From the NCBI GenBank assembly GCA_036149055.1, contig JAYZQJ010000132.1:1-24653 (forward strand): a DNA stretch of 24,653 nucleotides, in the 5' to 3' direction. Each line of letters begins with the position of its first letter. The stretch's first letter is position 1. Made by a program: the position numbers. The stretch is from Myxococcota bacterium. GTDB lineage: Bacteria > Myxococcota_A > Polyangia > Polyangiales > Sandaracinaceae. Below are positions 1-3,000 of the stretch, piece after piece.

Positions 1-3000
1 AAGCCCTTCGAGCTCGAGGAGCTCCACCTCGTCATCGAGCGCGTGCTCGGCACCTCGAGCCGCGAGGCCGAAGGAGAAGAAGAAGCCGAGGGCTGAGCTG
101 AGCTTTGGGGGGGGGTGGGGGGGAGCCCGACCCCGGGGGGGGGGGGGGCGGGGGGGGCGCCCGGGCGCCGCCGCCCCCGCGGGGGGGGCGGGTCCCCCCC
201 CCCCCCCCCAGCGAGAAGCAGCGGGAGGGGGCCCCATTGGCGCTTTGCCCAATGGGGGGAGGGTTTGCACCAAACCCTCCAATAAACTCAGAACCGTTTG
301 CCCATCTTCAGCGCGCGGACGAGGTCGTTGGGGGACGAGGCGGCCGCGCGGGCGGTGTTCTCGTCGATCAGGCCGTCGCGCACCATCTGGATGAGCTGCT
401 GGTCGAAGGTGTGGGTGCCGTACTCGCTGGTGCCGCTCTCGAGGGCCTGGGCGAGGCCGCGGAAACGGTTGGGGTCGCGGATGCAGTCCTGCACGGTGGG
501 GGAGCGCATGAGCACCTCGGTCGCGAGGATGCGCTCCTTGGCGCCGCGGCGCTGCACGAGGCGCTGGCTGATCACCGAGGCGAGCGCGTCGGCGAGGCGC
601 TGGCGCACCGTGTCGCGGTGACCCTCGGGGTAGAAGTGGATCATCCGGCTGATCGCGCGCGCCGAGTCCTGCGCGTGAAGGGTGGAGAGCACCACGTGGC
701 CCGCCTCGGCGGCGCTGAGCGCGATGTCGAACTCCTCGGGGGTGCGGATCTCGCCGACGAAGATCCAGTCCGGGTCCTCGCGCAGCGCGCCCACCAGGCC
801 CTCGCGGATGCCGTCGACGTCGCGGCCGACCTCGCGCTGCGAGAAGGTCGAGCGGTACTCCTCGAAGAGGTACTCGATCGGGTTCTCGATGGTGACGATG
901 TGCTTGCTGCGCTCCTGGTTCACCAGCTCGAGGAGCGACGCGATGGTCGTGCTCTTGCCGTTGCCGGTCGCGCCGGTCACCAGCACGAGGCCGCGGTCGA
1001 GCGCGGTGAGGCGCTTCACCACCGGCGGGACGCGCAGGGTGGCGAAGTCGGGGATCGGCGAGGGGATGGTGCGCAGCACCAGGGCGGCGGTGTTGTTCTG
1101 CCGGTAGTAGTGCACGCGGAAGCGGCCGACGTCGGGCACCTCGCAGGCGAAGTCGCCCTGTCGCGCCTGCAGGCGCTCCTCCGGGATCTCCGCGTAGGCG
1201 GCGAGCGTGTCACGCACCAGCTCCACGAAGCGCGGCGGCAGCTCCGGGTGGTCGAGCGGGCGGAGCGCGCCCTCCATGCGCACGATGGGCGCGTGCTTGG
1301 CGCGGAGGTGCACGTCGGAGGCGCCCGCGGCGAGCGAGCCCTTCAGGATGCGGAGCAGGGCCTCGGTGACGCGCTGGATGCCGCCGCCGGACGCGCTCTC
1401 GCGGACCGTGGCCGCGACGCTCATCCCGCCGCCGCCTTCTTCGCCTCGCGGACCTTGCCGATCGGCGCGTCGACCCGCAGGCCCTTGCGCTCGAGCACCA
1501 CCTGGCGACCGACGCGCGACTCGACGCCGACCACGAGCGGCGCCATCAGGTTCGCGGTCGGCTGGCTGCCGTCGCCGGGCACGTTGACCACCAGCGCGAT
1601 CGCCTTGTCCTCGTCGAGGTCGAGCGCGGCCCGCGCGTCCTCCACCGGGTAGCCCGGCCACGCCTCCTCGGCGTCCACCACCAGGAGCTGCACCTCTGGG
1701 TCGCGGCAGCTCACCAGGCAGCGGATCGGGTTGCCCTCGTCCAGGTCGCAGAGCACGAAGCCGTCGTGCTCGGCGAGGCCGAAGAGCCCCTCCGGGAAGC
1801 GGATCTCGGCGCCGGCCGCGACCCCCTCCTCGACCGCCTTCGCCAGCGCGGCGCGGTTCTGCTCGCTCACCCGCTCGACGAGCTCGGCGCGGTGCACCGG
1901 CAGCTCGCGCGGCGCCCGGATGCCGAGCCGCACGCGGCCCCCCGAGACGCTCACGACGGTGACCTCGATGTCGGCGCCGATCGTGATCGTCTGCCCGACC
2001 CTTCGCGTCAATGTCAACATGGTCTTCCTAACCCATCTCCGCCAGCGACGGCGGCGGCATCCTTGCCGCGATGGCCAGGGCTTCCCGGAGGGCGCCCTCG
2101 GCCTTGACGAGATCCGTGAACGACTCGACCGGGTCGGCCTCGACCAGGTCGGCGCGACGGCGGATCGCCTCGTCGCGCACCCGCTCGGCGGCGGCCGCCG
2201 CCTGCATGAGCGCCTGCTGCTGTCCCCCCGCGTTCGCCCGGCCGTTCGCGATCTGGTCGACGCTCGCCGAGAGGCCCCCGATGGAGGCGTGGATCGCGTC
2301 GCCGTCGTTGGCGCGCAGGGCCGCCTCGAGGTCGTCGAGGGCGGTGAAGGGGTTGGTCCCGCCCGAGGCGCCGAAGATGTCGGCCGCGCTGACCTGGGTC
2401 GCGAGGCGGAGGCCCGGGCCGACCTCGATCTCCTTGAGCTGCGTCTCGCCGAGGTAGGCGCCGGTCGCGTCGAAGGGCGCCCGGTCGACGCTGAGCCCGC
2501 TGAAGACGTACTCGCCCTCGATCTTGGTGTTGCCGAGGTTGAGCAGCTCGGCGCGCAGGGCCGCGATCTCGCTCGCCATCGCGCTCCGGTCGTTCGCCGA
2601 AACGTGGTCGTTGGCGCCCTGCACCGCGAGCTCGCGGGCCCGCGACATGATGTCGCCGACGTTGCCGAGCGTGTCGTCGACCGCCTGCAGCCGATCGACC
2701 GCCTCGTTGCTGATCTTCGCGACCGCGTCCGAGCGCCGCTCGCGGCTCTTGGTGCCCCGGGCGAGGCTCGCCGCCACCGGATCGTCGGACGGCTTCTCCA
2801 CCCGCATGCCCGAGGAGGCGACGCGCTGCGCCTCGAAGAGCGACTCCCGGTTGTTCGCGACGCCGCGCGTCGCGAGCTCGTGCATCATCGAATCGGATAC
2901 ACGCATCGGCTACCTCCCCAGGTTCACGAGCTCTTGGAGCATCGCGTCCGCCGCCTGCACCACCCGAAGCGAAGCCTGGTAGCCGCGCTGGTAGCGGCTG

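Follow-up and report, generated by a model that had tools for sequence, protein, structure and literature searches.

We report here that a myxobacterium of the Sandaracinaceae (GenBank assembly GCA_036149055.1, referred to below as G000) carries CsrA and FliW in a single polypeptide of 199 residues, encoded within the 24,653-nucleotide stretch of contig JAYZQJ010000132.1 that we analysed as a whole (the window; Table 1). As the first-pass annotation had stated, this chain holds the only CsrA match and the only FliW match returned by Pfam for the genome, which is 96% complete. The CsrA-FliW switch has been taken to require a finely tuned ratio between two partners that diffuse freely, and the way in which FliW prevents CsrA from binding RNA is still debated. 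We consider it reasonably probable, at about 60%, that the fused chain would work as an intramolecular flagellin partner switch, that is, a self-inhibiting translational repressor acting as a flagellin sensor. PMC and bioRxiv papers are cited below for their accessible sections.

Table 1. The csrA-fliW fusion gene and its neighbours in the window (window coordinates).
Feature	Position	Strand	Basis and remarks
csrA-fliW fusion gene	1421-2020	-	199 aa, no internal stop; open reading frame, intact in 4 independent runs
CsrA RNA-binding domain, residues 1-52	1865-2020	-	PF02599, E 8e-22; retains R44 and I14, has P in place of D at position 41
CsrA C-terminal helix, residues 44-68	1817-1891	-	AlphaFold2 model, DSSP helix 44-68; N55 codon at 1856-1858; continues straight into FliW
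Join from N55 to FliW core, 17 residues	1805-1855	-	Appears to occupy the place of the FliW N-terminal hairpin
FliW core, residues 73-187	1460-1804	-	PF02623, E 1.6e-20; N157, A160, G171 and Q173 correspond to N108, A111, G122 and Q124 of 5DMB
flgL	2028-2906	-	TIGR02550, over cut-off; stop 7 nt before the fusion ATG
flgK	2910-4304	-	TIGR02492, over cut-off
flgN-like gene, start uncertain	4301-4618	-	PF05130, E 1.6e-6, below cut-off
flgM, anti-sigma factor	4623-4898	-	TIGR03824, over cut-off
PilT/PilU-family ATPase	288-1424	-	TIGR01420, over cut-off; ATG overlaps the fusion stop (ATGA)

The CsrA half exceeds the curated cut-offs of three models (PF02599, 77.4 against 27 bits; NF002469, 76 against 73; TIGR00202, 73.5 against 70.1). 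The FliW half exceeds that of Pfam (PF02623, 73.5 against 25 bits) and falls below two NCBIfam equivalog cut-offs (65.9 against 165 and 65.1 against 130), while the standalone relative P0171 reaches 100 against 165. Contigs of four runs from four studies cover the locus without one inserted or lost letter, two of them spanning the whole stretch, and none of the substitutions listed for them creates a stop in the fusion frame; contigs from RNA libraries at this locus are not evidence of transcription. Because these contigs are free of indels, and in view of the 65 full-length two-domain homologues found by homology search with the fusion and the open frames of relatives, an assembly or frameshift artefact is ruled out. 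Purifying selection acts on both halves in each of the 8 pairs compared (for the FliW half, uncorrected pN of 0.06-0.19 against pS of 0.34-0.48), which together with the invariant residues described below rules out a degenerate FliW half.

The placement behind flgK-flgL given by the first-pass annotation is likewise borne out: both genes lie directly upstream in G000, and flgL lies directly upstream in 38 of 42 fused loci (a match on the opposite strand, at locus L019, was left out of the count). The same-strand genes upstream of the fusion are flgA, flgI, a gene with a rod-binding (FlgJ-like) domain, flgM, the flgN-like gene, flgK and flgL, and the genome encodes two flagellins, FliS, FlhA and a sigma-28. 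Other features of the window include an IS200-like transposase domain (12821-13705, minus strand), a PilZ protein (17294-17905, minus strand) and, at 20008-22556 on the minus strand, an ECF sigma factor with a pair of CBM48-like proteins after it.

Among 301 genomes of the order, 87 gave matches: 42 have one open frame over both domains (all checked on the DNA, one cut by a contig end) and 45 have separate genes or half matches, loci of which only a part were fetched. Fused genomes occur in ten of our families (f1, f3, f4, f6, f7, f9, f12, f15, f20 and f24) and in one genome of f18, and separate genes in f11 (n=4) and f18 (n=41). Flagellin is encoded by 112 of the 301 genomes, 27 of which lack both the CsrA and the FliW Pfam families, including all 14 flagellated genomes of f17. 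The fusion is widespread in the order but is a minority form; the earlier description of it as the common form is right by number of families only, and not by number of genomes (42 fused, 45 separate, 27 with neither). Similarly, f11 and f18 do keep two genes, adjacent in three f11 loci as had been noted, but adjacency extends to ten fetched f18 loci, and one f18 genome (G189) is fused. All fused loci come from metagenome-assembled genomes, labelled Sandaracinaceae, Polyangiales, Polyangiaceae, Polyangia, Myxococcota, Myxococcales or Deltaproteobacteria. In a phylum sample of 401 genomes, the full-length matches among those listed, beyond which lay 70 weaker ones, were confined to the same order, and all six loci fetched outside it have csrA and then fliW as separate genes. 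Since Geobacter sulfurreducens has this order too, separate genes in the order csrA-fliW are likely the ancestral state of the fusion.

Several departures from these arrangements were also seen. Eight f18 genomes, like those of f17, have flagellin without CsrA and FliW, and the f17 flagellins diverge at residues 12-17 and 241, within mapped FliW-contact regions. In twelve f18 genomes (G182, G185, G221, G243, G281, G093, G174, G080, G207, G235, G245 and G219) csrA and fliW share a contig but are separated by about 28-38 kb, with csrA remaining at flgL in the fetched loci. One fused genome, G123, has a second, standalone FliW of the hairpin-less clade away from flagellar genes (L046:1814-2137, contig C252), which the database proteins P0112 and P0117 resemble.

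A profile search of 1.84 billion representatives, the best 150 of which were inspected, returned among these 48 CsrA-FliW chains by profile (two of which look spurious), 12 FliW-FliW chains and 70 proteins with two to four CsrA domains. The tandem proteins include P0097, P0098, P0102 and P0105, one chain has the reverse order FliW-CsrA (P0134), and a tandem CsrA would amount to a single-chain dimer. In a quickly built FliW tree of 129 rows and 126 columns (unrooted, with SH-aLRT as the only support measure), 40 of the 41 fused genome rows form one clade with a support of 99, and G189 groups with the unfused FliW of f18 and f11 together with P0122 and P0141. Further fusions comprise a Desulfobaccales-labelled clade (P0109, P0120, P0127, P0147 and P0183, clusters of 7, 3, 11, 1 and 2 members), P0116 with 26 members, and P0166, grouped with P0126, which has 6 members, among them one seen on 152 contigs. 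Like the main clade, these and the G189 group have CsrA and then FliW in one chain; unlike it, they occupy separate places on the FliW tree, and many have the hairpin, an LQS/LQC patch and longer linkers. Their positions rule out that the fusion is confined to Polyangiales, and the sequences indicate that it arose several further times in other bacteria, although some of those outside the order are singletons known from one contig each, which may reflect errors of read-through. The f18 fusion at L047 (G189:C32) and L103 appears independent and keeps a hairpin-like stretch.

The target of the CsrA half seems to be the flagellin mRNA. In each of the two flagellin leaders of G000 (contig C183, upstream of 11791 and 12900), a hairpin with a GGA loop precedes another GGA hairpin that covers the Shine-Dalgarno sequence, in agreement with the hag-type target that the first-pass annotation had read there; the folding energies do not differ significantly from those of shuffled sequences (z -0.9 to -1.5). 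That annotation had also cautioned that the minimum free energy fold of the second leader pairs its GGA differently; this fold leaves the GGA as a loop apex, so the caveat falls. Under a hairpin rule set before the data were seen (a GGA loop closed by at least five pairs), the hairpin occurs in 44 of 68 leaders from fused genomes, 6 of 32 from two-gene genomes and 4 of 31 from genomes with neither gene, against 9-11% of shuffles. A two-site motif, whose counts are partly circular because it was written after seeing those leaders, is found in 47 of 68, 1 of 32 and 2 of 31 leaders, respectively, and in 33 of the 34 fused genomes sampled from the 41 of the main clade. Relatives are not independent, so these leader counts are patterns and not P values. 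The stem pairs vary with compensatory changes, and the two GGA sites are mostly 13-19 nt apart (about 15 nt). Within G000, double sites occur at four of 866 Shine-Dalgarno-like sites, and two of the four belong to the flagellins. Leaders of three f3 genomes without the fusion (G089, G002 and G082) lack the two sites, and those of G189 lack the GGA pair. G127, one of two exceptions to the two-site pattern, has no flgL match and is 88% complete, so its case is probably a gap. Co-occurrence of the leader sites with the fusion supports flagellin mRNA as the target. Only 10 of the 68 leaders show a promoter pattern resembling that of sigma-28. Flagellin leaders of the two-gene f18 and f11 genomes (L135-L154) have mostly ANGAN hairpin loops, with CCA(C/A/G)GAAGGAG at the Shine-Dalgarno, and not GGA loops, a pattern that suggests a shifted RNA specificity of the two-gene CsrA; position 43 of these CsrA proteins (L051-L075) is often L.

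Both sides of the inhibitory interface are kept. Of the FliW residues on which binding and inhibition of CsrA depend in B. subtilis (bioRxiv 2020.07.02.184341, accessible part), one part is retained: across 116 aligned rows (near-duplicates included, FliW numbered by alignment to 5dmb_A), the N55-proximal N108, A111 and Q124 (N157, A160 and Q173 of the chain) are present in all, as is G or A at the core-proximal position 122 (171). On the CsrA side, I, V or M stands at position 51 in 105 of 116 rows, the beta1 residues L2 and R6 are found in 41 of 41, and the reported retention of R44 and N55 holds in 115 and 111 of the 116 rows. We take R44 to be an RNA-binding residue. Other positions have changed: FliW P26, F58 and K123 are F80, L112 and R172 here, and CsrA D41 is P41, so that the K123-D41 bridge is absent. 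P26 and F58 are loss-of-function sites in B. subtilis, whose bridge is termed Bacillales-only in the sections seen of bioRxiv 2020.07.02.184341; the P26 position is variable among standalone relatives too. These differences at P26, F58 and the salt bridge are what would speak for a FliW half that no longer inhibits, leaving CsrA to repress constantly and FliW to serve only as a flagellin chaperone or tether. We regard such a loss as very improbable, given the near-invariance of CsrA N55 and FliW N108, A111 and Q124 and the finding, in the same accessible text, that deletion of fliW stops motility in B. subtilis (bioRxiv 2020.07.02.184341).

An AlphaFold2 model of the 199-residue chain as a monomer (pLDDT 85.5, pTM 0.74) predicts one unbroken helix over residues 44-68, with FliW beginning at 72. 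Residues 57-192 of the model align to residues 3-142 of 5dmb_A (Z 15.9, rmsd 2.9, 132 aligned; FliW chains overall Z 15.5-16.2), so the tail of the CsrA helix seems to be placed where the 5DMB hairpin was. Foldseek matches FliW structures at E 6e-9 to 7e-8, with a weak preference for the CsrA-bound 5dmb_A (rmsd 2.5 against 3.5-3.8 for other FliW chains). Could the join lack the length or flexibility that FliW needs to contact its own N55 helix, so that one dimer inhibits another in trans and the fusion does no more than set the ratio? The continuous predicted helix would fit this, as would the importance of the ratio, which is known to be critical and is held by translational coupling in B. 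subtilis (PMC6529632, in the part available), and the many other fusions that keep the hairpin and have long linkers, as expected of simple read-through. Yet the join measures 17-26 residues in the 42 fused genomes and 16 in one database record, a floor of 16-17 residues across ten families that fits contact in cis, as does the single-chain model with the helix tail at the hairpin position; we consider trans inhibition improbable.

Whether the FliW half still senses flagellin can be judged only indirectly. The N-terminal hairpin motif ([RKQY]F[GN]; T/S-R-F-G) is missing from all 42 fused FliW and present in 26 of 29 standalone ones, with G189 having a looser form, and the WLQS and LAFP patches are replaced across the main clade (40 fused against 28 standalone rows; L047, L050 and L046 dropped). 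In the standalone patch W is present in 23 of 28 rows and Q in 24 of 28, whereas of the 40 fused rows 36 have R100 and 35 have V103. Flagellin of B. subtilis protects FliW residues 3-11 (W1) and 22-28/95-115 (95-115 being W2), according to the accessible sections of PMC6070490; with the hairpin (W1) gone, one of the two mapped flagellin contacts is lost in the main clade, and N108 and A111 fall inside the protected W2 region. On the flagellin side, N241 lies in a stretch that would match the FliW-protected D1-C region. This asparagine occurs in all 68 flagellins from fused genomes, in 30 of the 32 from two-gene genomes and in 5 of the 31 from genomes with neither gene, a signal confounded by kinship: two genomes without FliW, G082 and G089, have it, and G189, although fused, does not. 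N236, the asparagine of ENL, does not separate the groups (66 of 68, 31 of 32 and 30 of 31, respectively), and a complex prediction for flagellin and the FliW half, both given as alignments, scored 0.22, below the mark of 0.32, and counts neither for nor against contact.

It may be, then, that the trimmed FliW grips the CsrA helix and has lost flagellin sensing, to become a built-in damper or stabiliser or to answer to another partner such as the coupled PilT-like ATPase. The missing W1 hairpin and WLQS patch argue for this, as do the near-invariant new residues R100 and V103, which mark a remodelled surface, and the restriction of invariance to CsrA-contact residues. A pilT gene, moreover, follows the fusion at 25 of the 42 fused loci but is downstream at none of the 24 standalone-csrA or 29 standalone-fliW loci. 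However, loci without the fusion still have pilT behind flgL (flgL is joined directly to pilT in the f3 genomes G089 and G002, and G082, also of f3, has no fusion after flgL), so it is independent of the fusion, and the conservation of flagellin N241 in fused genomes also weighs against lost sensing. Furthermore, two short FliW models of NCBIfam, of 128 and 129 positions, start at the core, so standalone FliW without the hairpin exist. These two models presumably represent Campylobacterota FliW, an identity that would fit H. pylori FliW2, in which Q106 stands for Q124; C. jejuni and H. pylori FliW are short. Campylobacterota FliW bind flagellin, as the accessible part of PMC5466977 describes, and on balance we judge a loss of sensing unlikely. 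As to the ATPase itself, G000 has five further PilT-like genes at 33-43% identity to the one in the window, whose coupling to the end of the flgKL operon (also at L221 and L222) may link pili and flagella; downstream of it, long G and C homopolymer runs at 95-290 are either a GC-rich region of strong hairpins or an assembly blemish.

For the intramolecular partner switch, we envisage that two chains form the CsrA dimer, by analogy with B. subtilis and Geobacillus. While flagellin is exported, each tethered FliW would fold back on the N55 helix and block RNA binding, so that flagellin is made; once flagellin accumulates, it would displace FliW from the helix via an overlapping beta-strand surface, and the dimer would clamp both leader sites. 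One FliW per CsrA dimer is found in B. subtilis and one is enough to inhibit, translational coupling holding the ratio (PMC6529632, accessible text). The fusion fixes two per dimer, so repression would need both to be loaded with flagellin, which would make the switch steeper and independent of the concentrations of the two proteins. The earlier statement that repressor and anti-repressor are fixed at 1:1 is correct per chain, but the resulting two FliW per dimer are double the B. subtilis number. Its suggestion that the flagellin checkpoint runs inside one protein gains from the conserved fusion, the active-looking CsrA half, the kept CsrA-binding residues of FliW and the flagellin-mRNA target, and is weakened by the missing W1 hairpin. 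Against the partner switch stand this loss, the replaced WLQS/LAFP patches and the differences from B. subtilis at P26, F58 and the bridge; a tethered inhibitor at high local concentration could also hold CsrA off unless flagellin binds tightly.

A more elaborate reading, which we put forward tentatively and think rather doubtful, starts from the fact that fused domains cannot part, so that the RNA-bound and flagellin-bound states would be one particle (flagellin mRNA, CsrA dimer, FliW, flagellin and FliS) and the device would couple translation to secretion. Nascent flagellin could then switch on the repressor on its own mRNA, and the silenced mRNA might be carried to the export gate, to be released by export of the two bound flagellins; the particle would be a two-ligand AND gate in which the CsrA helix tail stands in for the lost FliW hairpin. 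In B. subtilis the flagellin N-terminus suffices for FliW binding, and a FliS-flagellin-FliW complex docks on FlhA.

Whichever way the chain works, its closest known counterpart is the Hag-FliW-CsrA system of B. subtilis and Geobacillus thermodenitrificans (5DMB; PMC6529632, and in part PMC6070490 and bioRxiv 2020.07.02.184341), with which it shares its domains and the FliW fold, residues N55, I14, N108, A111, G/A122 and Q124, two GGA leader sites of which one lies on the Shine-Dalgarno, and a position after flgK-flgL. It differs in being one chain and not two coupled genes, in its csrA-fliW as opposed to fliW-csrA order, in its FliW number per dimer and in lacking the hairpin, P26, F58 and the K123-D41 bridge. 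The csrA-fliW genes of G. sulfurreducens (PMC13407953, accessible sections) are similar in gene order and operon context (flgJKLMN-csrA-fliW in that paper's notation), and binding there depends on N55, but they encode two separate proteins with a broader regulon that includes biofilm and electron transfer. The CsrA-FliW pairs of Campylobacter jejuni and Helicobacter pylori share the V/I51 and N55 binding site, and their FliW binds the N-terminal region of flagellin (PMC7829508, PMC5466977 and PMC11905337, in part); unlike the fusion, they are unfused and lie outside this order.

Our literature search found no description of a CsrA-FliW fusion and no paper combining CsrA, FliW and Myxococcota, although domain databases, the papers behind 5DMB and the first FliW phylogeny could mention such a protein. 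The accessible part of a 2026 survey of CsrA variation has no passage on fusion, and the two Myxococcota CsrA of its supplement are both unfused (PMC13443453); the words 'fused' and 'fusion' are absent from the accessible text of a Pseudomonas CsrA survey (PMC7366521). Databases name the fusion proteins only 'carbon storage regulator', 'FliW' or 'hypothetical'. The fusion is made of known parts rearranged, and domain fusions of partners are common. What is new is that the main fused clade lacks the FliW N-terminal hairpin and WLQS patch, that leader sites track the fusion and that fusion would have originated repeatedly.

In summary, the single-chain form, present in ten families and apparently re-invented elsewhere, removes the ratio of the partners as a variable, doubles the FliW per dimer and drops one of two flagellin-contact regions. 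The 22-kDa chain is a ready object for testing which FliW surface senses flagellin and whether inhibition works in cis. For the organisms themselves, the fusion points to regulated synthesis of the flagellar filament in uncultured myxobacteria.
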